From Raja brachyura (lineage: Eukaryota): a stretch of DNA of 64,000 bases. Location: NCBI GenBank assembly GCA_963514005.1, contig OY740781.1:113584001-113648000 (forward strand). Reading direction: 5' to 3'. This document shows, piece by piece, positions 10,485 to 57,070 of the stretch (position 1 is its first letter; the number at the start of each line of letters is the position of its first letter). Below the pieces are notes generated by a model that did not search any database, had not been told where the DNA came from, and saw only the letters and a program-made list of their open reading frames with translations. The position numbers and the translations under genes are program-made.

Positions 10485-12940
10485 TGGAGGCCCTAGGGGT
10501 CACCACGCCAGTCTCTGAATCCACGGATTGGGTATCCTTGATGGTAGCTGCCACTAAAACAAACCATGACGGACGCAGAGATCGAGGTACGCGCAGATCG
10601 AGAAGGAGTTACTCGCAGTGGTATTCGCATGTGTGATGTTCAATGACTATATCTTTGGTAAAGCTGTGACAATCGAAACGGACCATCAACCACTGGTTTC
10701 CATCCTGACTAAACCGATACACGCTGCACCAGCCAGGCTGCAAAGAATGATGCTGCAGCTCCAGAAGTACAACATCACCCTAATCTACTAACATGGCAAG
10801 GACATGTAGCTGGCAGACACCCTGCCCCGTGCGCCCAGGAAAACCGACGACAGGCATGCAGCCAAGAAGGACACATTTGATATTATGATGATTGACCACA
10901 GTTACCTCTCGGGTTTGGATACGTTGATTGCCCACATGGCTGAAGATAACACCCTACAGATACTCGCATCGATCATTAAATGCAGAAGGTCTAACAAGCA
11001 GCTCTCACTTCCACTTTCAGTGCAGCCATTTTTTACCGTCAGGGACGAACTGGTAATAGAGAATGGAGTTATTATGAAGGGCCACAAAGCAGTGGTCCCA
11101 GCTTCACTACAGCAGGAGTACTTTCATGCCGTACATAGAGGGCACCCTGGTTCAGAAGCAACGGTACAATGGGCCAAAAACATGTTCTTCTGGCTTGCCA
11201 TGTGGGACTATGTGCGCCAGAGGTTGCAGTAGTGTGGATGTAACAGTATGTAACAATCTAGCACCACACCAGCAGAAGGAACCTGCATCACCGGGTTCCT
11301 GATCTACCGTGGACAACCCTGGTGACTGACATTTTCGATTAGAATGGCAATCAGTACCTGGTTCTAGTGGACTCCTACTCCGGTTGGTTTGAGATTGATT
11401 TGCTCCGCACTGCCTCATCGGCGGTAGTTATTCAGAAACTTGCAAGACACTTCTCAGTTCATGGGGCCCCTCTTTCCCTCATGTCGGACAATGCAGGACA
11501 ATTTACAAGCCATAGCTTCAAAGACTACCCAACACTGGGACTTCAAACATGTCACCAGCAGCAGTCGAACGGGTTAGCAGAAAGAGCCGTTCGCAGTGCA
11601 AAACAGGTGATAGAAACATCTAAAAGAGCGGAGTCTGATGTCTTCCTGAACCTTCTTAACTTACGCAACGTTTCGCGGGACGCAGTGTTAAGTTCACCTG
11701 CACAGCGCTTGATGTCCAGACAAACCAGCACTACCCATCCAGTAGCTAAGCAACTGCTACAACCTCAGGTTCATGGTCCACATGCAATCCAAGCCCAACT
11801 ACAACACAAATGGCAAGTTCAAAAAACTTAATAAGATCAAACCAGCTGCCCCCTCTCGCCTTTGTCTCCCGGACTAACGGTCCGTCTACAAACACAGAAA
11901 GGACATGACCGCATAGGCATAGTGGCAGAAATCTGTCTGGAGCCACTTTCCTAATTAGTTCGTTCTGAAGGAGGAAATTACAGGCGTAATATGAAAAAGA
12001 ACATGTGATTCTGTTTGTAGTTTGTTTGTTTGTTAGTTTTTTGCACAAAGTCCGCGGGCACTGGCACTTTTCATTTCACTGCACATCCCATATGTGTATG
12101 TGACAAATAAACTTGACTTGACTTGACTTGAGGAAACATATCCTGCTGGTGAGTGAACCAATCTCAGCAGTTCTCGTATGGCTACGTCAGTGTCCCGGAC
12201 TTTGTGCCAAAAACTAATAGAGAGACTGTGGATTCAAACCGTAATGGCTTCACAAAGGTCAAAGAGCCACCGGCACTATTGGCGAAATCACCTATTAGAC
12301 TGCCGGTGATGTCACCCGTGAAGTCTCCCACAAAGACTACTGAACCACCACCTGAAATGATGTCACCCGCCCCTCCAGCAGAGGGCCTGTAACATACGCT
12401 TATAGGACGGGTTTGTCGGCCTAACCCTAAATACAAAGACTGTATTAGATACTAATTACAGGTTTCCATTACCTGGGCCACATTGTATTCCTCCTTATTC
12501 ATATCTTTCACGGCTTGGTCGCAATTTATAAAGCACTGTATCTTCCTACTATACATTGGAAGTTTTAGTTGTATGCTTATTTAGTTGCATGATTTATTAT
12601 ACTTAAGGAGGAGGTTGTAGATCAGTCAGTACTAGTTGACCTAATCCATATGCATACCACTGCACACTCAAACAGCTATCTGGTTGACCGTCTCATATTA
12701 TCTAGCCTGCTAGTCCAGCCTCTAGTGGATTTGTCGAGTTTGGGTTTACAGCACCTATGTATTTGAGCTCTGTGTGCTTTCTTAATAAACAACTTATACT
12801 CATGTATGGAGTCTGAAGAGGGGTCTCAACCCGAAACGTCGCCTATCTCCTTCGCTCCGTAGATGCTGCTGCACCCGCCGAGTTTCTCCAGCCTTTTGTG
12901 TACTATGGATTCTGAGTTATTTGACATTCTCACACACATG
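10485..12940 (+). mobile_element. Degenerate Gypsy LTR retrotransposon: RT remnant, RNase H, integrase, PPT and probable 3' LTR (from ~12616)
   Basis: RYAQIEKELLAV, ETDHQPL, HRGHPG, VDSYSGWFE, SDN, SNGLAERAV motifs; purine tract aaggaggagg followed by TGTAG; AATAAA at ~12784; short Rex-tail and Penelope inserts. Confidence 0.85.
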
Positions 12941-13339: not shown

Positions 13340-14070
13340 AATGCAGGTATAAGAGAGCTCTCAGCACCTAGTCTTTCCTCCAGTCTTTCCATCACCATTG
13401 GAAACTTTTATTGCTGTTCATCAACATGACGACCAAAGTTGTGGCAATGAAAGTCAAAGAAACTATTATGAGGCTGAGAAACAAGAATAAATCTGTTAGC
13501 GACATCAGCCAAACAGGCTTACCAAAATCAACTGTTTGGAACATCATTAAGAAGAAAGAGAGCACTGGTGAGCTTACTAATCGCAAAGGGACTGGCAGGC
13601 TAAGGAAGGCCTCCACAGCTGATGACAGAAGAATTCCCTCTATAATAAAGAAAAATTCCCAAACACCTGTCCGACAGATCAGAAACACTCTTCAGGAGTC
13701 AGGTGTGAATTTGTCAATGACCACTGTCCGCACAAGACTTCATGAACAGAAATACAGAGATGCAAACCACTGGTTAGCCGCAAAAATAGGATGGACAGGT
13801 TAGTTTGCCAAGAAGTACTTAAAAGAGCAACCACAGTTCTGGAAAAAGGTCTTGTGGACCTTATGAGGTCTTGTGGCGGTGGTGCATTCTACAGCAAGAC
13901 AATGATCCTCAACATACTGCTAAAGCAACAAAGGAGTTTTTCAAAGCTAAAAATTGGTCAATTCTTGAATGCACAAGTCAATCACTCGAGCTGAACCCAA
14001 TTGAGCATGCCTTTTATACACTGAAGAGAAAACTGAAGGGGACTAGCCCCCAAAACAAGCATAAGCTAAA
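13340..14070 (+). mobile_element. Tc1-family transposase fragment, internally deleted
   Basis: HTH (KSVSDISQTGLPKSTVWNIIKK), GR..K AT-hook, QQDNDPQHT and S.ELNPIE (DD34E region). Confidence 0.92.
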
Positions 14071-17765: not shown

Positions 17766-19371
17766 ATGAACCCATGCCTCCAAAGGAGACTGCGATGTCC
17801 ATGCCTTCTATAGGTCCCCGTGACAAATATTAACAACCCCTTGACAACCGCATTCAGCCGCAGGGAGGGTAACCGACCCTCTGGTCCATAACTGTGGTAA
17901 TTGCGGTGGCTCATACCCGAAATTTCGTGCGCACTGCCTCGCTTATGGCAAAACTTGCCACTACTGTAAAAAGAAAGGCCACTTTGTCCGGTGCTGCCGC
18001 GCTCGTGGCAACAGGGCCCAGCCACAACAATCTCTCTAGTTGCTTGAGCCCACACTTTCCCATGAGGAACTAACTGAAACAGCAGTTCCAGCAGAACCAC
18101 GACCGCAGCACCTGCAAGAAGACAGCCAAAACATACATTCCTGTGTACCCAACTCACCGTTTTACTACAGTGATCCCATGACAACGTTCAGTATCAACAA
18201 TACCAAAGTCGCTGCAAAGATAGATACTGGGGCACGATGCAATGTCCTGTCTTTATCAGACTCCCAAAGAATTCATAACAAAGAAACTGTTATGAAAACA
18301 AACTCCAAATTACATCCATTTGGTGGGGGGGAGTTGCAACCGGTGGTAAGGTCACATTACAATGTTATCTAGTGTCTCAAGTTTACAATCTGGATTTTTT
18401 CATCGTTAGAGGGGAAGTGCCCCTCCTTCTGGGCATTGATGCATGCTGTGATATGAACCTAGTCTCTTTCGGCAAAACTGTGTACCAGCTATCTACCTCT
18501 CAAAGTCCCACCCAACAACTACTCGAACAATACAAAGGACTTTTTGAGAATCAGCTTCCCACAGAATACAGCATTGTAACCGACAAGGAAGTCATACCTG
18601 TCGTTCGTTCTCCTCACCGAATCCCGCATGCAATGAAGGACCAGGCCAAAACTGAACTTGACAGAATGGAAATACTGGGCATGATAGCCCCTGTCAACAA
18701 CCCCTCCTCCTGGGTCTCCACCATGGTCGCAGCAGTCAAGAAGAACAAAAACGAAATAAGGATTTGTATCAACCCTAAATATTTAAGCACTGCCATCAAA
18801 CAACCACACCATCTGATGTGGGTGGTGGAAGAGGTCGCAACCAGGCTGGGTAAAGCCAGTCTTCTCTGTCCTAGATGCAAATAACTAATTTTGTCAAATA
18901 CCGCTAGACCATGCTTCCTCCATGTTAACCACATTCGCGACGCCCTTTTCGGACGCTACCGATTCTTACGAATGCCATTTGGCATCAATTCAGCCAGTGA
19001 AGGTTTTCAACGTACTATGGAACAACTCTTTACTGGCGACATAATCGTGGATGACATCCTGATCGCCGGGCGCAACACACAAGAACATGACTCAAACCTG
19101 AAGCATGTCCTGGATCGTGCCAGAGAGGTAAATCTCAAACTCAACCCTCTCAAGTGCAGGTTTCGGGTCGACGAAGTGATGTACGTGGGCCACATGTTTA
19201 CCAACAACGGACTCAGGGCAGACCCGTCTAAAACCATTGCCATCAATGAAATGCCAGCACTGACGGATGTGACAGTTCTACAATGATTTCTAGGCATGGT
19301 AAACTACCTGGGAAAATTCATCCCAAGCATCAGGGAGCTGTTATCCCCTCTGCGACAACTGACCCACCCTC

Positions 19372-19720
19372 TGCTGGAAGATTGTTCCCGATGTTGGGGG
19401 AGTCCAGAACAAGGGGTCACAGTCTAAGGATAAGGGGGAATTCCTTTAGGACCGAAATGAGGAAAACATTCTTTACACAGAGAGTGGTGAGTCTCTGGAA
19501 TTCTCTGCCACAGAAGGTAGTTGAGGCCAGTTCATTGGCTATATTTAAGAGGGCGTTAGATGTGGCACTTGTGGCTAAAGGGATCAGGGGGTATGGAGAG
19601 AAGGCAGGTACGGGATACTGAGTTGGATGATCAGCCATGATCACATTGAATGGCGGTGCAGGCTCGAAGGGCCGAATGGCCTACTCCTGCACCTATTTTC
19701 TATGTTTCTATGTTTCTATG
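19372..19720 (+). mobile_element. CR1 3' fragment inserted in Gypsy pol
   Basis: RLFPMLGESRTRGHSL...GTGY and (TTTCTATG)3 tail; Gypsy frame resumes (DTPWSW). Confidence 0.93.
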
Positions 19721-22077
19721 ATACACCCTGGTCCTGGCACCAACACCAGCAGAGGGCATTTGAAACCCTCAAACAATTAATGTCTTGCGCTCCAACCCTC
19801 ACATACCCGTCACCCTCACCTGTGATGCCTCCCAGTATGGACTGGGTGCTGCTTGCCTACAAGACAATGGGAAGGGTCCCAAACCAGTTGCCTATGCCTC
19901 CCGCACCATGACCGACACTGAACAGCGCTATGCCCAAATCGAGAAGGAGCTACTCGCAGTAACTTTTGCCTGCAAGAAATTCAAGAACTTTATCTTTGGC
20001 AACCTGATCACGGTTGAAACCGATCACCAACCCCTGGTCAGTATCCTCATTAAACCGATCCACACGGTACCAGCATGTTTACAACGCATGATGATGGAAC
20101 TACTGAGGTATGACAAACGCGATAAGGACATGCACTTAGCTGACACCCTCTCACAGGCACCTCGCCCCACCTGCGAAAAACACCTGTCTGATGGTGAGCA
20201 TGAGGGGTGCACGGTTATGATGGTCTCCTGCTTTCCATCGCGGGCTTAGATATCCTAGTGCACAAACAGCTGCAGACGAAACGCAACATTCGCTTACCAC
20301 CATCATCCGCCGCGGTGGCCAGATAAACAGCACCATCTGGCACTGGCTATCCGCCCATTCTACCCTCTCCGCGACGAACTGGTCATTCAAGACTGCATTA
20401 TAATGAAAGGACATAAGGCAGTTATCCCGACGTCTCTTCACAGCAAGTACTTTGATATTATCCATGTGGGCCATCCCGCTGCAGAAATAACCCCCCAACA
20501 TGCAAAAGGAATGCTTTTCTGGCCTGACATCGCTGACTACATTCTTGAGAAAGTTGCTGCCTGCCCGATTTGCAACAGCCTGACCCCGCACCAGCAGAAT
20601 CAACCACTTCTCCTGCACCCCACACCGGACTTACCCTGGTCCACAGTAGCAGCCGACATCTTTGAGTGGCACAGCAAACAATACCTGGTTCTAGTCGATT
20701 CCTACTCAGGATGGTTCAAACTCGGCCTGCTCAGTATCCCGACCTCAGCCATGGTCATCCAAAAACTCACTCGCCACTTCTCTGTCCACGGAGCACCCCT
20801 CAAGCTACTCTCAGACAATGGAACTCAATTCTCCAGTCAGCTCTTCAGGGATTTTGCAAACGTTGGGACTTTCACCACACCACCAGCAGCCCCGAGTACC
20901 CGCAGTCCAACGAGCGCGCGGTAAGAGGTGCTAAACAACGAATGGAATGCTCACACAGGGCCGGCTCTGATGTTTATCTCGACCTACTCAACCTACGGAA
21001 CATCATCCGCGACCCTCTCCTGGGATCTTCGACCAAACAGCTCATGTCATGGCGAACCCGCTCCACCCTGCCTATGACCAAGTATTAGAACCACAAGTTC
21101 ATGCACTGTCGGTGATCCAATCCCAGCTCCAACGCTGCCGCGACATACAAAGAAAATACTATTGATAAAACCAATTCTCTGCTTCAACCACTCAACAAGG
21201 CACAGGTTGTCTGCTTACGACGTTACAACCGCCTTGGAGTTATTTTGAGGTCAACCGCAGAGCCATGCTCGTACCTGGTCAGTATTGACAATGGCATTTA
21301 TCGATGCACTCCTCACGGTTGATGAACCGGCACCTTCCCGTCCTTACCTCCACTTCCGGCCTGCCGGTCTTCCCACACACTCCTTGAATGCCACTCCAGT
21401 GATACCTCTACCGGTGCCAGCACCATCCCTGCCTTCCCTGGTGCCCCCATAACTGGTGTCTTCTCCTACGCGTTCACCCGATAAGGGACTTACTCCCTCA
21501 GAGAAGGGTGAGGCGCACGGGGGGGGGGGGGGGGGGGGGAGATGGGGGGGGGGGGGGGGGTTACTACAGTACACATGCAGGTCATGTCTGCAAGCCGAAC
21601 CCGCTGATTGGAAAATTCACCGGCTATACTTGAACTGTGCAAGGCCCGTTTCGTTTTATGTGCTCACATATGCACAAGCATGTACACGTAAAATAATAAT
21701 GCCCACATCTTATACTGGTGTTTTACAATATGCTCCACTAACCATTCTATATATGCTTTGCTTCTTTAAGAGGAAGGATGTACATTAACCCTTATTAATC
21801 CATGTAATTTAAAATCTCTACTACACATATATGGGTGCCACCCTTTACATGGTATTACGGTACTACACAGCTTTACACTCGCAAGGTCAGCCTGTTCTCA
21901 CAAGCCACGCCGAGCTGGAAGTGTATGGCTGGCAGTTTAAATGTTCCTGATTGCTTATGGAATAAAGATTGATCTTTCACTATGTGTGTTGTTGTGGATC
22001 ATTCACAAACAGTCACCAGTTGGTCACCAGTTGGTTCTGGCATACCAAAACATTTTAGTGATCTTTAAAGTAAACAA

Positions 22078-26709: not shown

Positions 26710-27060
26710 GGTGCACAGTAGAGAGCTTGCTGACCGGTTGCATTGTGGCTTGGTTCGGCAACTTGAGCGCACTGGAGAGGTAAAGACTACAAAATGTAGT
26801 AAGCACTGCCCAGTCCATCATCGGCTCTGACCTTCCTTCCATCAAGAGGATTTATCGCAGTCGCTGCCTCAAAAAGGCTGGCGGTATCATCAAAGACCCA
26901 CACCATCCTGGCCACGCACTCATCTCCCTGCTACCTTCGGGGAGAAGGTACAGGAACCTGAAGATTGCAACGGGCAGATTCAGGAATAGCTACTTCCCCA
27001 CAGCCCTCAGGCTATTAAACCTGACTCAGACAAAACTCGAATCGACTCGACTCGACGCCT
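26710..27060 (+). mobile_element. Rex1/Babar-like LINE 3' fragment inside the Helitron
   Basis: Encodes IIKDPHHPGH.L.SLLPSGRRYR...T.RFRNSYFP; short-repeat tail. Confidence 0.75.
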
Positions 27061-27089
27061 AACGGACACAAGCTCCGTCCTGCGCTGAG

Positions 27090-27159
27090 CTTGCTGCGGG
27101 CCGGATAACATCTCGTGGCGGGCCGGATGTGGCCCGCAGGCCATAGTTTGGAGACCCCC
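27090..27159 (+). mobile_element. hAT (Charlie-like) terminal remnant
   Basis: gcgggccggatgtggcccgcaggccatagtttggagacccc, similar to the end of the hAT MITE at 38180-38248. Confidence 0.6.
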
Positions 27160-27700
27160 GTCCTGGACGCAGAGCTTGCCGCTGCTGTCACCCAGAAACT
27201 CGTAAAGGCCGACCTGGACTTCAAAGGAGGGGCCTTTCCACTTGATGTACAGGTTCTTGTCGTTATCCTCCCGGAAGGTGAGGGTCTCCTTCAGGGTGTA
27301 GTAGGCCACTGCCAGCACATTACCGAGCGAGACGTTTTTAAACCTCACCATCTGACGAATGTTGTCGTAGTTGGGGATATTGATGCCGTCTGGGATGCCA
27401 CTCTCAGCGAAGGTGAGCACGTCTACGGAGGTGAAGTCGAGCTTGAGGAATCGGTCCTTCTCAAAGGGCTGGGGCCAGGGTAGCTGGGGCATCAGCCACT
27501 CAGCAGAGGCCACCAGCCGGGTGAACTTGGCACATGTCCTTGTTCAACACCGCCTCACAAACCCTTCAAACTTCCCTCTGGAGCCATAGGGGTCACGGTA
27601 ATGAAGCCGATGTTACTCTCCACCATGGGCACCTCATCCCGAATCCAGTGCTTGGAGCCCTCCTTGTGTGCGCGGAGCTGAACGTGCGTGGCCGAGCTGG
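27160..27700 (-). pseudogene. DPP3: Processed dipeptidyl peptidase 3 fragment (intronless, frameshifted, zinc motif degenerate)
   Basis: [96 protein letters not shown]; HELLGH is replaced by YEFLGD (27187-27204). Confidence 0.95.
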
Positions 27701-28174: not shown

Positions 28175-28650
28175 GTCCCACCAGCATGGGATTGCATGCG
28201 TCTAGCGCGACCAAACGTGGGTGCTTGAGGCGTACAGCTGCGTGGGGCCGGTTCCACTTCGAACTGCAGAGGCGTATAGAGTTGTGCAGGGTTGGTCCCG
28301 ACATTATACTCATTAATCGAGCAGGAGGCGGGCTGGCTGAATTTGGACGTCGCACGCTGTTGGGCGGTGACATCATCACGCAACTGCATGCCGGGTGGTG
28401 ATGTCATCGCTCAACGCCACGCGCTAGGCATACGCCATCAAGACGCTGCGTACGACGTCAAGACGCCTGCGGGCCGACAGGCCTTTGGCACGCGGAATTT
28501 TCAAACAGTGCGATGTCGGGAACAGCCCTGCACAACTCCATACGCCTCCGCGGTTCGAAGTGGGACCGGCCCCGCGCGGCCCATACGCCTCAAGCGACCA
28601 CGTTTGGTCACGCAAGACACATGCAATCGCATGCGGGTGGGACAGGCCCT
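28175..28650. mobile_element. Palindromic PIF/Harbinger-type MITE inside the Helitron
   Basis: Long inverted arms; GTGGGACAGGCCCT terminus followed by TAA; left TIR partly lost. Confidence 0.75.
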
Positions 28651-33224: not shown

Positions 33225-33950
33225 TCACTCATGAATAAACGTTTCTTGGGGACCAGTACTTAAAACTGTCTCTGCAAACGTTGCGGGAGCGGCCACAGGT
33301 TTATTATAAAACTGCTGGAACGTTGCTTCGCTGGCCCAGCCTGCTGTTGCGAGGATATGGTCCATGGGAACCTCCATGGTCCTCGCCGCTGATGTGGATG
33401 CAGCCCTGGTAGAATGGGATTGAAAGATATTAGTATTAATACCTGCTGCATCCAATACCACCCTGAGCCACCTGGAGATAGTCTGCACCGTCACCCAGTG
33501 ATGAGGTTTCTTATGGCTGATCAGTAGGCCTTTCTCCATTTTCCTCATGGTATGCGTCACTTTGATATAGTAACGTATGTAGGTGGCTATGCAGAGCCTC
33601 ACATCAACGGGGTATGCCGGAAATATTAATTGCAGCCCTGGAGTCCCAGGTCTGTGCTGCTTGAGTAACTCGTCAATGAAGAAAGTTACTCTCTCAGGGG
33701 TTGAGACCATGTTATCCAATTTGATCTTTTGCAAGGTCTGAACCCGTTGTGCCGAGGTTAGCGCCATGAACATCACTATCTTCAGGGTGAGTTTATCCAG
33801 CGGTAGTCCAATCATAGGCGACCAACTCCTGAGTAGGGTCAGTACTACCCCTATATCCCAGGTGATGTTGTATCGTGGTTGGGGAGGGTCGAATTGAAGA
33901 TACCCCTCATCAATTTGGACACGAGCTGGTGAGACCCTACTCCTATACAA
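33225..33950 (-). CDS. DIRS tyrosine recombinase catalytic domain (open 241 aa; N-terminus frameshifted)
   Basis: TSAQR...HSTR...AGW..ATF..FY catalytic residues. Confidence 0.9.
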   Translation of the reverse strand: MYRSRVSPARVQIDEGYLQFDPPQPRYNITWDIGVVLTLLRSWSPMIGLPLDKLTLKIVMFMALTSAQRVQTLQKIKLDNMVSTPERVTFFIDELLKQHRPGTPGLQLIFPAYPVDVRLCIATYIRYYIKVTHTMRKMEKGLLISHKKPHHWVTVQTISRWLRVVLDAAGINTNIFQSHSTRAASTSAARTMEVPMDHILATAGWASEATFQQFYNKPVAAPATFAETVLSTGPQETFIHE

Positions 33951-34188
33951 AGGTAGGATGACAGTGCGCTTCTGGCACTGTAGCTGAGGCCCTCATCATG
34001 ATGTAGCCCTGCAAGGAATTCCAGCTCATGGGGAATCGTGGCAGAGTCACAAGTGATGTTGATCCAGCTGCAGTAGGCCTCTCATTTCCTGATTTGGGTG
34101 AGGTACTGTCGTTTTGTGGATACTCTGCACGATGTTGCAATGGTGTCCATGGTCCTTCGTGTTAGCCAATTTTGCAGGAGTGGCCTCT

Positions 34189-34643
34189 TCAGAACCTGTA
34201 AGCCAACAGGTTCAGATGACCATGGCACAGATGATTTTCCCCTGTTGTGGGGTTAGTTACCAAATCCGGGCATTTATTAATATGTGCCCATGGTTCTTTA
34301 ATCATCTCAAGGACCACCGGATACCATGGTTGTGTAGGCCAGTCAGGTATTATTAAGATGCCTGTTGCAGAAACTGACTTTATTTTCTGCAATACCCGAC
34401 TGTTAAGGCAGAATGGAGGACATGCATAGAAAAACCATTTCCCCAGTGCAGCAAGAAAGCGTCCATCACTACTGCCCCAGGATCTGGTTCCCAAGATACA
34501 TATGTTGGTATCTGGTGGTTCAAAATGGACGCAAAAAGGTTGATATCTGGTGTTCCATATTTGGCTATAATTTTAGCAAATATTTGGGGATTTAACATCC
34601 ACTCGGTGTTATCATTGAATACGTGTGATCTGGTGTCCGCCAC
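34189..34643 (-). pseudogene. DIRS DNA N6-adenine methyltransferase-like domain, frameshifted
   Basis: EWMLN..PDINLFAS..N; MDAF..W; FYACPPF..ILIIPDWPTQPWYP. Confidence 0.85.
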
Positions 34644-36000
34644 TGAGCTTACCAGGAAGGTAGGTAGCTGATATCCAAATATTTCTTTCTATACACCAGA
34701 ACCAGATTGAGTTTGCCAATTCATCACAAGATATTGACTTGATACCACCCATATGATTCAAATATGCCACCACAGTGGTGTTATCTATTTGAACACGGAC
34801 ATGCGTATGATGTAAATTCATGCAATAAGCTTCCAGCCCGTTAAATGCTCCTAGCATTTCCAAATAGTTTATTCCTTGTGATAATAGAAGGGTAGATTCA
34901 TGTAAATCCCATCTACTGCCACGACTGGAGGTGGTGTCGGTAGCTCCCCAGCCTTGGGCACTTGCGTCGGTTTGTACCACGACTGACGGATTCGGTACAA
35001 TAATAGGATTCAATGAGTCACGAATATTATCAATCCATCATTGTAACTCAACTTTTGCCTTGATTGGCAGCTGCATAGGCTTATCAAAATGTCCAGCATT
35101 AGCTACTAGTTTTCCAATTACCTTAGCAGCATGTCTGATTGTTGGTTTCCTGGCGCAAGCAAGGTTGTTACATGCTTCAACAATATTCATTGCCTTGTTA
35201 TCTGCGATGGTAACAATCATCTGATTGGTGTTAATTGTGAATCCCAGGTAGTTCATGACCTGTGAAGGGTAGAATTTTTGATTTGTCTGGATGGATGAAT
35301 AACTTTAATTTTGGAAACAATGTTTTAGTAGCTGTCACTGCTAAATTTGTCGATTCCATAGTCTTTCCCCCAATCAAGATGTCATCTAAATATGCCATGA
35401 CAACATGGTTTTGTTTTCTCAGGGATGCCAATACTGGTTTCAAAATTTTAGTAAATAACCAAGGGGCTGTTGTAAGCCCATTGGGTAGGGCTCTATATTG
35501 CCATAGTTAGTCCATCCAGCCAAATTTCAAGAACTTTCGGTGATGTTTCCGTATGGATACTGAATAGTATGCATCTTTTAAATCGATGCATGCCATGAAG
35601 CACCCCTTGGAAATCAGTGATTTAGCTGTTTCGAATATGTCCATTTTAAAATGGGTATATTTTACAAAAGTATTCAAAGGTTAAGTCAATAATAATCTGA
35701 CATCCACCATCTTTTTTGGTTTTGGTAAAGATGTTGGATACAAACTCAAGAGGTTCGTGTATCGTTTTCTCTATCACCCCCTTGGCATGTAGCCTTAAAA
35801 TTTTCTCATGTCCTTCTGCTTCCTACATATGGGAAAGTGCAAATTTTCGGTTTGGTACATGTTGAGGCGGGGGAAGTTGTTCATCTATGAATTCAATTTC
35901 ATACCCTTTATTACTTTGTAATATAAATGAGTCTGAAGTTATAAAGCTCCATGCATCCCAGATTAAACGTAATCTCCCACCAATTTGTGAGGTTAAACAT
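34612..36000 (-). pseudogene. DIRS RT/RNase H, frameshifted
   Basis: GGRLRL..AW, GYEIEF, DLKDAYY, MAYLDDIL, YLGFTIN, TDASAQGWG. Confidence 0.9.
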
Positions 36001-36040
36001 GCAGCACTCGTATGAGAACCAGACCGCCTTACTTCCATGG

Positions 36041-37745
36041 TTACCGGCGGGGCCTGATGTTCTGGGTTCTGGCGCTCCGTTGTGTTGCTGGGGTGTGGGG
36101 TTGGCACATCTTCCGCGCCGGTCGCTGTTGGCCCTGCCCTAAAAAAGGCTTTTGTTGTTGGGGTGCGGCCGGCGTGTAGGTCCTTGATGTTCCATCAGCT
36201 AACCCCCGAGGTCTTACGTATGGATTTTGTCTGCGAGATGCCGGCCTGCTGGAGGAAGGTGGTTTCATGAAACCGACTGCCTTCGCCTCCTCGTCCAGGT
36301 CCTTGACCTGTTTGGACAGGTCCTCACTGAACAGCTGTCTCGGTCGCGGCATCGCAAATGCCTTGCACAACCCCGCAAAGTTGTGTATTACACAGTAGCG
36401 CAAGAGCATCTTTCTGCTCCTCCGTCATCTCAGTGCCGTCAATCGACCTGGCAAGGCAGTGATTCCCGACGTCAACAGTTCAGAATTTTTTGAAGTTTGA
36501 GCTCCTGAGCCCTAATTCCTGGACTGATGTTGCCCCAGATGGGCATGTTAACTGTCGGTACGTTCAACAAAACACAGTTGTTCGGGGCCTTGTATTTATG
36601 CATTGCCTCGGCCAAAACATGATCCTGCAGCTGGTGTGTTGTGAGGAAGTCAATGCTCGCCGCTAGTTTTGGCTGCAATGGCTGTCCTGTATGCCCTGGC
36701 TGGGCAAATTTGGAAACCACTTGGAGAAGTTCCTCTTGAGGTATTTCCCGCAGGTTCCTAGGCCAACCCCTCTTCCAAGTCAGCCAGCTGCTGACTCCTG
36801 GCATTCCCCACCGATGAAGGGGATATGCTGGGTGGCCCAGATGCATGTCTCCCGGAACTTAAGGACATCCGATCCTGCTGCAGGAGATCGCGCTCAAGGA
36901 GTCGCTCCATCATGCGCTCCATTCGGGCCATGCAATCGCCGCCGCTATCTGCGGACAGCAAGTCAACTTCCTCAGGTTCCCCTGAACGACTGAGGCTTCT
37001 ACCGTAGGCCCGCACCTCATCGAGGTGATGTCTAGGGTGCCTAGGTAGGATGTCGCTGCCTGCCGCTCCTGCGGGGCTCTGCGACTCCCGCGCGGATATG
37101 CCACTAGTCCGCGGTCTTCTGGACTGGAGCGGCCCGCCTGTCTGGAAAGACATAAGCGGTGAGGAGTTTGTTCCAGCCGCCGAAGAGGGGTTCACCGATA
37201 TCCGCGTGGGCTTGCCGCCTGTCCTCCCCCGGGACAAAGGCGACGCATGGTCATGTCCAGCCACTAACGCGGGGTTTGGTGACCGAAATATGTTGCCACC
37301 GGCCTGCGATCCTGGTGAGTCTGCGCCAGCCGCGCCTGCGGGGCTCCCGGACTCAGATCTCGATCCCTCACGAGTCCGCGATCTGGCGGACTGCTCCGGC
37401 GGCAAGTCGATGCCGGCCGCTGCAGCGGGGCTCCTCGACCATAGTGCGGTTCTTCCCCAGGTCCGCCCTCTGGTGACCTGCAATGGAGGGGAGACAGAAC
37501 GTGCCGTACTGCTGGGAACACGCTTACGCACCTTCTTGCCACTGTCCCTGTGTTTAGATGACAGTGGTAGGGAGTCAGGGTCTTGCCTACCCTGCTCCCG
37601 CGCGGTGCTCCTACCACTATGTGGCTCCATAGACAGCCATGGTTCTCTTCCCGGCCCGACAAGCGGGTGCTGCCGTTATAGCAGGCAGCTCTGGGGAATG
37701 CAGCCGCTGACTCCTATCGGACGTCCCGCGGCTGGAGGCATGTTT
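36041..37745 (-). pseudogene. DIRS gag (ORF1), disrupted
   Basis: Ser/Arg-rich N-terminus, then P.NC..L.VP.VN..IW and LF..DL.KQVK DIRS gag-like motifs. Confidence 0.75.
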
Positions 37746-38155: not shown

Positions 38156-39282
38156 GCGAAAAATAAATGAAAAAAAAACGCCTGCGGGCCGGATGATTTC
38201 GGGTTATGGGCCGGATCCGGTCGGTGGGCAGTAGGTTGCCGACCCCTGATCTAAATGCATGTATATCTTTTCCCTTGGAATACGGTCTGGTAACTTTCCA
38301 ACTACAGATGTTAAGCTCACTAACCTACAGGGAGGGTGCACGGCAGTTGAGGTCACGACCCGTGACCCGTACTGTTGCCATGCAACGCCTTCTCGAGTAC
38401 AAGCAGTGAACGTCAGGTAAGCACTTACTACCGCTGTCAGTGCAGCAGGCCCATCTTCTGTCCCAGCATCCAGACTCCACGCTGACTGGTTCCACACTCA
38501 CAGACCCCAAGCCATCTGTCCCCCCGTGTGGGGGTCGGGGGTGAATCATTCCGTGTGTCGTGTGTGGGTCGGGGTCTGGGGGTCAGTGAATCACCCCAGT
38601 GTGTGGGTCGGGGTCCGGTGCCGTTGCAGCGCGGTCAGTGACTCTGGGTGGGCGGAGGGACCAGACTGTCCCCAACTTTGCTGTAGCTGACGGGGACATC
38701 GGCGGGTTTATGGCCCCATGTGTCCGGGGCCCGGAGCCGCGGCCCCGCTCCTTGGCCCTGTGCGTGGGCGCTGTCGACCCACAGCCAGAGACAGAGCGGC
38801 CGCACAGGGGGGCTATCCGGAGGTATCTGCTCCATCAGGCGCTTACACCTTGATGCTGCATTGTACTACCCTGTGCATCACGCCCTTTGACCTTACGTGC
38901 AACCCACCTATAGTTCCCAGTATTTTCCCTGCAGTCTTTCATTTGCTGCCCTCCAGTCTTCGGGCACCTCTCCCTGTAAATTTCAACCAATTTCCTCTCT
39001 AGTTTCCCACAATGTCCTTATCTGTGATAATCTCATGTATGTTGCGCCGAATTACATTCATTCATTTCCACAGCACACGATTCATGTGTGCATTCGACTC
39101 AAAATATTTATCGTAGTTTGATTCTCCTCGGTTTGTAATTCCTCACAAAATTACGTTTGTCTTTCAAAATAAGGGTAATGAATGTACACTGTTTAATGTA
39201 GTTATGCACTGTAAAGACGCTTGTTATTGTCACAACGATGATATACAAATAAATAAGCTGTGTAGAAAAGAACTGCAGATGC

Positions 39283-40318
39283 TAGGTATGTTACAAAACT
39301 TACCTTTAGCGGTGCTGCAGTTCTGCCGCTGACCGTGTGCGCGACTTTGGGGCCTTACGGGGGGGGGGGGGGGGGGGGGGGGGGAGGGGGGGGGCAGGGT
39401 TAAAATGCGGTTTTCCCTTGCCATCCGGAGCTTTATTTTCTCGGAATGCGAGCTATTTCTGGAGATTTGTTCCGACTGCCGGTAAGTCAGTTTTTTTTAT
39501 AAATAGCCCGACTATTTCATCGCTGCAGTAAAATAAAAATTAGCTCCTAATGCCGTGAACGCCGACAACGGGGACGGATTTTACGTAGGGGACAGGTAAG
39601 TGAAAGCTGTTTATTTTTACATATAAATTTGCTTTTTTAGCGGACTTTAATCAATATTTCATGGTGCGAAATGGTGATTTAGCCCCCATATGAACTGGCA
39701 GAATTTTTCCTGACGATGTGGGGTTTAAATTCACTGCAACCGCAACGTTCTAATCCATCGCGTTCCAGAAAATCCCACTCGCAAGCTGTTTAAAATGCCC
39801 ATTAATTTACAGGCATTAAACACTGAATTCCTTCAATTTGGCCTATAAGTTAATGACAATTAGATTTAAAAATCATGTTATATTGTGAATTATTGTGTGA
39901 CTGTTAATTTCTTAAGAAATTGATAAATGTTTAGATCTAGTAATTGAATTTTGTAATTGGCTACAATTGGGTAACTAACTAATTATATGCTTTAATTTCA
40001 GGTCATCCAAGTAAGATTGTTTCATATTTGTTTCAGAATACTTCTATCTATAATAACTGAAAATTTCTTTCAGTTCTCTTAAATTTTAAGGAAGTTATGG
40101 GCTTTTGACTGTCGTTGATCAAAACCTTTGTGTTAAGTCAATAGAAAAGCAATAGGAAGCAAGTTGCTAATTTCCGAGTATGAAAATGGCCCTAACTTTT
40201 TTAATACTGAAGATATGAAAGTGAATTAGGTGTCAAATTAAACTTATTTTTATGCTTTATCTGATGGGATAAATTGCAGACTTGATTTTTAAAATCCCAA
40301 CATTTTGTAACATTGCTA
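39283..40318. mobile_element. Unclassified TIR DNA transposon (TAG...CTA), copy 1, 7-bp TSD CAGATGC
   Basis: TIR TAG(GT/CA)ATGTTACAAAA; TSD at 39276-39282 and 40319-40325; splits a Penelope terminal repeat. Confidence 0.88.
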
Positions 40319-40445
40319 CAGATGCTGGTTTAAATCGGAGGTGGACACAAAAAGCTGGAGTAACTCGCGGTACAAGCAGCATCTATAAAGTCAGCGTGCT
40401 TTGGTGAATGCAGCGGCAGACACGGCTTGCAAGCGCTGCCCTTAC

Positions 40446-55044: not shown

Positions 55045-57070
55045 AAATATTTGCCTTTGTTAGCCAGAGCATAGAATGCAAGAGCAGGGAGGTTATAGTA
55101 CAACTATTGAAACATTAATTAGGTTACAACTGGAGTTCTTGGTGCCACACTATAGGAAGGATGTGATTTCTCTGGAAAAAATGCAAATATTCACCAGGCT
55201 GATACCTGGGCTGGAGAGAGTGGATTTGTTGTGACTGGAGCAGAGGAGCCTGTAGAGAGACCTGATAGCGGTATACAAAATTATGAAGTAGCGATGTTAC
55301 AAAACTTACCTTCAGCAGCGCTGCAGTTCTGCCACTGGCCGTTTGCGCGATTTTGGTGCCTTTGAGGGGGGGGGGGCGGGATTAAAATCCAGTTTTCTCC
55401 TGCCTGTCGGAGGTGGATTTCCTCGGGTTGCTAGCTGCTGAAGAATAATCGATCCGACTTCCGTTCCCGATTTTTTTTTAAAATCGCGGGACAATTTAAT
55501 AATTTGATTAAAATAAAAAGCGACTTCTAAGATCCTCAACGCCTACAACGTGACGGATTGCAAGAACGGGACAAAACAAAGGGTAAGTCGTCTATTTTAC
55601 ATATAAACTTGCTTCTTGGGATGGCTTTAATCTAATTTTACATTGCGAAAATGTGATTTGGGCCCCATACGAACCGGCAGTGTCTTTCCTGCCGATATGG
55701 TGTTCAAATTCACCGCAAATGCAACGTTCCAATCAATTGTGCTCCAGAAACACCCACTCGCAAAATGATTTCAATGCCATGTCATAAGAACATCTAAATC
55801 GTCTATATGTTGTGTTATTGTCTACCCATAGTCAATATTTTTATACTAAATATCATGTATTGTGCAAAAAAATTTAAATTTTGATTATATCGAGTGGATG
55901 TTTCTAGATTAATTTATGGGAATTCAACATTAAATTCCTTCCATATGGCAAATAAATTCATGACAGTGAGATTTAAAAATCATGTTATATTGTGAATTCT
56001 TGTGTGAATGGGATAAGTTTGTTATTTGGATACTTAGGCTATTTAAAAAATATATCCTTTTCTTAAGAAATGGAATCTACAGGACATTCTTAATGGGAAA
56101 GTACTGGGCAGAAAGGCATGTCATGCGTGGTTTGAAGAGCGAAAACTTGTAGTTTACAATGCCAAAATTGAAAAGGTGAGGAGAAACAAGGTGTACAGAG
56201 TTGCTTATTAGTTACAATCTGAGGAGTATGATGATGCTACTGATTATGATATGCCAATGTACCAGCTAGCAACAGATCTTCTCCATAAAGACTTGGTCTA
56301 TTGGCTAGAAATTCTAATTTATTTACCTATCTGTTACGGACTTACAGCATATAATACAATAATATTAAAGTTCTGATCTTGAGAATATCACATTTTTGAA
56401 TTTTCAAGGTAGTCTGGGTGTTTATTACTATTTCCGTCACAACGGTCAATTTTGTAATTGACTACAATTAGGTAATTAACTAATTATATGCTTTAATTTC
56501 AGGTCATCCAAGAAAGATGTTTTATATCTGTTTAAGAATGCTTCAATCTATAATAACGGAAAATTTAATTCAGTTCTCTTAATTTTTAAGAAAGGTATGG
56601 GCTTTTGACTGTCCTAGATCACAGCTTTTGTGATAAGTCGATGGAAAAGCAATAGGGAACAAGATGCTAATTTCCGAGTATGAAAATGGCCATAACTTTT
56701 TTAATACTGAAGATATGAAAGTGAATTAGGCGTCACATTAAACTTCTTTTTATGATTTATCTGATGGGATAAATTGCAGACTTGATTTTTAATATCTCAA
56801 AATTTTGTAACATTGCTATATGAAGGGCATAGATAGGAGGAAACGTTTCCACATAAGGTGTCTGAAACAAGAGGGCATTGGTTTACAGTAAGGGTTAAAG
56901 GTTTTAGAGGTGATCTAAAACGAACTTCTTCACCCAGAGGGTGGTTGAAATCTGGACCATATTTCCCGTGGATAATGGAAGCTGTCATATTTGAGAAGTA
57001 TTCAAATAAATACTTAAATTGCCGTGGCACCGATGGTTGCAGAGTCCTGATGAATTGGATTAGTATAGAT
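55045..57070 (+). mobile_element. Old CR1 fragment split by the TAG-TIR transposon
   Basis: DLIAVYKIMK | GIDR..SETRGH is continuous across the insertion. Confidence 0.75.
55289..56818. mobile_element. Unclassified TIR DNA transposon (TAG...CTA), copy 2, 7-bp TSD TATGAAG
   Basis: TIR TAGC(G/A)ATGTTACAAAA; TSD at 55282-55288 and 56819-56825; homologous to 39283-40318 with extra internal sequence. Confidence 0.9.

Follow-up and report, generated by a model that had tools for sequence, protein, structure and literature searches.

A divergent, probably hAT-type transposon family with 7-bp target site duplications and a Spindlin-like transposase domain in the genome of Raja brachyura

The stretch of the Raja brachyura genome analyzed here (64 kb, hereinafter the window) harbors two elements with TAG...CTA termini that an initial annotation had placed at positions 39283-40318 (copy 1, 1036 bp, plus strand) and 55289-56818 (copy 2, 1530 bp, plus strand), and both are confirmed. 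When the window was searched with a 16-bp pattern of the terminal inverted repeats (TIRs), with at most 2 mismatches allowed, 4 matches were obtained, which are exactly the four element ends, namely 39283-39298 (plus strand) and 40303-40318 (minus strand) in copy 1, and 55289-55304 (plus strand) and 56803-56818 (minus strand) in copy 2; the number of matches expected by chance in the window is 0.12, and none of 100 shuffles reached 4. The two copies had been said to share a common TIR, and this is accurate for three of the four ends, which read TAGCRATGTTACAAAA exactly, but not for the left end of copy 1, a TAGGT variant (TAGGTATGTTACAAAA) that differs at 2 of the 16 bases. Over the 16 bp, this variant is identical to the right TIR of a relative, L001, from a metagenome locus.

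Each of the elements is flanked by an exact target site duplication (TSD), CAGATGC at 39276-39282 and 40319-40325 for copy 1, and TATGAAG at 55282-55288 and 56819-56825 for copy 2 (all on the plus strand). Among the lengths from 2 to 15, only 7 yields an exact duplication in both copies, as originally reported, and the chance of encountering two exact 7-mers is roughly 4e-9. Taken by itself, copy 1 is also compatible with an 8-bp duplication combined with asymmetric ends, a possibility that is excluded by copy 2. Thus, the ends and the exact duplications support the original proposal of a cut-and-paste family with TAG...CTA termini and a 7-bp TSD. It had further been proposed that each insertion cleanly splits a host repeat. 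For copy 1, this is borne out: the empty site restores the host repeat, and 3 other copies of that repeat align to it with no gap where the element had been (3 of the 10 matches in the empty-site search span the junction). For copy 2, the left TSD of which lies within the 3' part of a LINE that we take to be CR1-like, the split is seen under looser settings, where the emptied site aligns to other LINE copies ungapped and in frame, but not under the strict ones, where the single match does not span the junction; tblastx at this site does not distinguish between TSD lengths from 5 to 9.

Both copies are non-autonomous deletion derivatives. In copy 1, no transposase remnant was detected, whereas copy 2 retains, at 56062-56304 (plus strand), an 81-codon remnant that was overlooked in the initial annotation. 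This remnant corresponds to the last ~80 codons of a transposase gene, which encode a Spindlin-like Tudor domain, and is interrupted by one in-frame stop (56209-56211); the stop is private to this copy because nearly all aligned contigs from the sequencing runs described below differ at that codon. The remnant aligns with 68% identity to the C-terminal end of P0004, a 960-aa protein (E 5e-27), which is one of the six longer proteins, among 15 candidates, that it matches with 61-75% identity. Pfam detects no families in the remnant, the rest of the 64-kb window contains no other match to the P0004 family, and Rfam gives no matches across the 64-kb window.

Similarity between the two copies is uneven along their length, at 91% identity over the last 372 bp (the conserved right subterminal region, 56448-56818 on the plus strand in copy 2), 84% over 103 internal bp and 71% over ~500 bp of the left end. 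With right ends that are 91% identical and left ends that are 71% identical, the copies belong to different subfamilies, or else one of them is a mosaic. Such a contrast could come from swapping of ends between subfamilies or from a tighter constraint on the right end.

Abundance, insertion ends and related loci

Part of copy 2 was found in at least 20 public sequencing runs, from 11 studies and 8 organisms, with a small share of it in four of these runs; no RNA run is among those listed. In four runs, the aligned contigs number 38,538, 32,264, 20,434 and 1,127. In one of the runs (X1), the summed depth climbs about 700-fold, from ~3,500 to 2.45 million, in the bin with position 55289; past the bin with 56818, it drops from 3.2 million to 55. 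Loose contig ends accumulate at 56818, where 178 contigs of X1, 293 of X5 and 21 of X15 diverge into unrelated sequence (agreement 0.35-0.41), which indicates that many independent insertions end at this same base. Thus, the transposon family is abundant in the four runs examined, with ends that are sharp at the window coordinates. The flanks at 56818 show a weak consensus in X1, X5 and X15, with C in the first and G in the seventh position, which hints at a preference for 7-bp palindromic targets; neither of the window copies fits this consensus fully.

In the 12 of 87 rows listed, three contigs have a right end followed head-to-tail by a left end, with spacers of 7, 7 and 1 base, a 7-base spacer being what is expected of a tandem insertion at one target. 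The 7-bp length of the TSD accordingly rests on the two window copies together with two tandem joints. Four contigs span junctions of copy 2 but contain 21-25 bases of the element itself, which is below the 31-base standard; there is no more than a hint of an insertion common to different organisms.

Two relatives link these ends to an enzyme. Among 79 related metagenome loci, L009 is a complete element of 4208 bp in which TIRs starting with TAG surround an intact 928-aa open reading frame, 38% identical to P0004; in L001 (62% identity), the right TIR lies 734 bp past the open reading frame. Inverted pairs starting with TAG were detected in 3 of 49 loci, of which L009 is convincing, L077 plausible and L010 probably due to chance. 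In 39 of the 79 loci, no TIR pair flanked by a duplication of 7 or 8 bp was seen, and the ends proposed by visual inspection for L006, L010 and L015 carry no matching duplication. The flanks of L009 do not match each other, perhaps as a result of several copies being collapsed into one contig. The parent element is probably ~4 kb or longer and encodes a DDE transposase of ~930-990 aa.

Four loci from one metagenome set (L010, L004, L013 and L020) contain long subterminal tandem repeats and are larger elements, perhaps near 10 kb. In viral contigs, there is no relative among 47 candidate stretches; the TIR pattern occurs in at least 119 viral stretches, and the 80 listed contain one match each, which we attribute to chance.

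The transposase and its relation to hAT elements

So where does the transposase of these elements belong? At E<=0.001, P0004 has relatives in 1930 clusters, and those with names, which come from Hydra, molluscs, echinoderms, a priapulid, a brachiopod, a sea spider, a sponge and teleosts, are all labeled 'uncharacterized' or 'hypothetical' or are plainly misnamed. The ESM Atlas clusters nearest to residues 330-860 of P0004 include proteins from Basidiomycota (0.94, 0.91). The family may extend to fungi. Pfam gives no credible match in 6 proteins, nor in the 6 members of the family that are part of a set of 11 proteins; a sequence search of solved structures returns no matches for P0004 and nothing except coiled-coil noise for the full profile. 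The 30 nearest ESM Atlas clusters have no Pfam family in common, and the nearest named ones contain DUF659, hAT-dimerisation and FAM200-type proteins, with scores of 0.77-0.79 that give no more than a lead. In the sense that Pfam gives no credible match for the transposase and that no solved structure matches its sequence, the lineage is indeed poorly described, as the initial annotation put it. The same findings, along with the uninformative or wrong names of the relatives and the lack of a Pfam family shared by the nearest clusters, speak for the possibility that the lineage is absent from Repbase and Dfam and is a sister group of hAT deserving a name of its own, as proposed originally; we consider this unlikely in view of the database records discussed below.

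In the AlphaFold model of the transposase (pLDDT 86.9), the first core strand carries D412, D489 comes after a strand further along, and E766 sits on the helix that follows a large helical insertion; in the aligned relatives, D412 is conserved in 92 of 93 rows, D489 in 93 of 94 and E766 in 89 of 90. C514 and H517, which form a CxxH motif after the second aspartate, are retained in all 94 rows, and a C/DxxH motif after the second aspartate is a feature of the hAT superfamily. Where another hallmark of hAT, the RW motif, would be expected, the family has R590 followed by L or F at position 591. In a Foldseek search with the model, Hermes comes first (E 1.5e-6), the P transposase being the second family (E 3e-4). 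In the VIA-align comparison against 48,161 chains, Hermes scores Z 17.3 over 336 residues at 4.3 A, the next best Z is 10.3, and RAG/Transib scores 6.6-7.0; re-alignment to Hermes gives Z 18.5, with 336-342 residues aligned over both runs.

The rank of the P transposase in the Foldseek search raises the question whether the family might belong to the P superfamily, in which Galileo makes 7-bp duplications and the proteins also have a CxxH-type motif. This assignment appears very improbable given that the P transposase reaches Z 7.7 at 8.3 A compared to a Z of 17-18.5 and about 4 A with Hermes, that no THAP or P-transposase match is found with Pfam, and that the ends are TAG rather than CA. Tc1, Harbinger and Academ are disfavored by the ranking of folds and by the TSD lengths known for these groups. 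The exclusion of hAT itself, which the initial annotation had based on the 8-bp duplications and CAG ends of that superfamily, is not supported: no other fold comes near Hermes as a match for the transposase model, and 8 bp is merely the usual length for hAT.

The likeness to Hermes (PDB 6dwz, 4d1q, 8edg, 2bw3) extends from the RNase H-like DDE core, with its large helical insertion and CxxH motif, to the short TIRs and the existence of non-autonomous deletion derivatives. Unlike Hermes, however, the family makes 7-bp rather than 8-bp TSDs, lacks Pfam matches to the BED and hAT-dimerisation domains as well as the RW motif, and adds a long coiled-coil N-terminal part and the C-terminal Spindlin-like domain; the sequence identity between the two is ~10%. 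In terms of the broad definition of hAT, the Hermes-like fold with the helical insertion, the C/DxxH motif, the short TIRs and a TSD in the range of 5-8 bp are all found in the family; in terms of canonical hAT elements (Ac, Buster/Charlie, Tip100), the 8-bp TSD, the Pfam dimerisation domain and the RW motif are all missing, and it is because these canonical tests fail that we file the family only in the broad hAT superfamily.

With the ends, the 7-bp TSD, the high copy number, the descent from this transposase family, and the DDE and CxxH residues established, and a Hermes-like fold predicted, we conclude with considerable confidence that the window copies are internally deleted, non-autonomous members of a divergent hAT-type cut-and-paste family of an animal branch, most likely hATw. 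It is a new family within a kind already known, not a new superfamily. The name hATw appears to denote a divergent group of animal hAT elements with a 7-bp TSD, first described from Hydra and amphioxus. The window family probably fits the hATw of Repbase and Dfam.

Several records bear on this assignment. Groups of hAT elements with TSDs of 5, 6 and 7 bp have been published (PMC12730594), '7-bp TSD' was used by Repbase as a keyword for hAT families in 2015 (PMC4455052), and the small divergent hAT classes of Dfam include hAT-hATw, with 9 families in 2021, listed there without a description (PMC7805219). Elements annotated as hATw are reported in amphioxus (PMC12905397), in molluscs (PMC6128900) and in Hydra (PMC13465017), and Hydra and molluscs are prominent among the named relatives of P0004. 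These Dfam classes, Repbase entries and hATw annotations argue against an uncatalogued lineage. A literature search found no paper that defines hATw, and the accessible part of PMC12730594 names hAT5, hAT6 and hAT7 and makes no mention of hATw, which weakens the link to hATw.

Could the window family then belong to hAT7, described from rust fungi? In the accessible part of the same source (PMC12730594), hAT7 is likewise a hAT group with a 7-bp TSD but is fungal and groups with Ac/Tam3-like canonical hATs of fungi and plants. The window family, in contrast, is unrecognizable to the Pfam models of hAT, which argues against membership in hAT7. Probably, the shift to 7 bp occurred independently in the two. 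As a transposon family, then, the one in the window is ordinary, an abundant and probably catalogued hAT-type lineage. It does provide, however, a natural enzyme with a predicted hAT fold and a 7-base stagger, along with intact relatives (L009, P0004), and so bears on the question of what sets the length of the TSD.

The C-terminal domain and a proposed mechanism of transposition

The part of the transposase that survives in copy 2, modelled on L001, is predicted to form a small barrel (pLDDT 93.4). Foldseek has Spindlin1 in the top rows for this C-terminal domain (best E 0.024), and with VIA-align, the RDM15 Tudor domain and Spindlin-4 score Z 7.2 and 7.1, respectively, both short of the 8 from which a VIA-align score is considered comfortable. 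With a profile made from 21 sequences, Spindlins occupy the first 17 places among 20 PDB matches (best E 0.0013); the Pfam family Spin-Ssty matches none of the 21 family members. The domain is present in 62 of the 69 relatives of at least 780 aa, nearly always at the very end of the protein.

The cage of Spindlin1 that holds H3K4me3 consists of F141, W151, Y170 and Y177 (PMC3967050). In the profile alignment, numbered by way of the chain offsets, W902, Y911 and Y928 of the transposase face F141, W151 and Y170, the alignment with repeat 2 alone being not significant; the three positions are aromatic in ~99% of 103-104 rows, and the counterpart of Y177 is unaligned. Other well-conserved positions of the domain include the acidic residues E933, D940, D951 and D956. 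Thus, the likeness to the Spin/Ssty repeats of Spindlin1 and Spindlin4 consists in the Tudor-like barrel and three aligned cage positions, at 14-18% identity, whereas the Spindlins have three repeats in a stand-alone protein and here one repeat is fused to a transposase.

Reading of methylated histones is the function that we prefer for the domain, and we would give it about an even chance. The main alternative, which has a fair claim to attention even if we hold it to be somewhat improbable, is a generic SH3/Tudor-like barrel that serves in DNA binding or oligomerisation and does not read histones. Values of Z below 8 are common, the barrels of TraI, CarD and Tn7 TnsB match as well, and the non-significant alignment with repeat 2 points in the same direction. 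Against a generic barrel stand the sequence profile, the Foldseek ranking and the ESM features, which agree in indicating Spindlin, as well as the almost invariably aromatic cage positions and the conserved acidic residues. Less likely than histone reading, and in our estimate rather doubtful, is that the domain steers insertion. If one goes further, a Spindlin-type reader of methylated histones might guide or regulate integration according to chromatin state in many animal phyla, and the Spin/Ssty repeat of vertebrate Spindlins might perhaps share a common origin with this domain of the transposon; we put this forward as a tentative idea. Should the Spindlin-like domain be a histone reader, it would represent a chromatin-targeting module built into a eukaryotic cut-and-paste transposase, and such a module, if real, would be of interest for the design of vectors and for the question of how Spindlins arose.

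For the reaction itself, a scenario can be outlined after the biochemistry of Hermes as we understand it. A multimer of transposase, supplied in trans, would bind the TAG-ended TIRs of the copies that have no gene of their own; excision would leave hairpins on the flanking DNA; the 3' ends would then join target strands that are staggered by 7 bases, not 8; and repair of the gaps of this 7-base stagger would produce the 7-bp duplication. The C-terminal Tudor domain, as a putative reader of methyl-lysine or methyl-arginine, might tether the enzyme to chromatin, a step for which the moderate resemblance in fold is the guide.

Other elements in the window

Several further elements and remnants lie in the window, the repeats of which would suit a vertebrate host, probably a cartilaginous fish. 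Pieces of a broken Gypsy-like LTR retrotransposon are found at 10810-11831 and 18040-21088 (plus strand; reverse transcriptase match E 4e-12), the latter interrupted by a LINE fragment, and at 13372-13803 (plus strand), there is an N-terminal remnant of a Tc1-like transposase (HTH_Tnp_Tc3_2, E 2e-6). On the minus strand, a tyrosine-recombinase frame (Phage_integrase, E 5e-5) lies downstream of frames similar to reverse transcriptase and RNase H at 33225-36200, which we take to be a broken DIRS-like retrotransposon. At 27007-27543, also on the minus strand, an uninterrupted frame of 177 aa matches peptidase M49 (E 1e-46); presumably, it is a processed pseudogene of dipeptidyl peptidase 3, with a decayed zinc motif. 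Finally, positions 28175-28643 are occupied by a MITE-like element of ~470 bp with inverted arms of 131 bp that are 86% identical.
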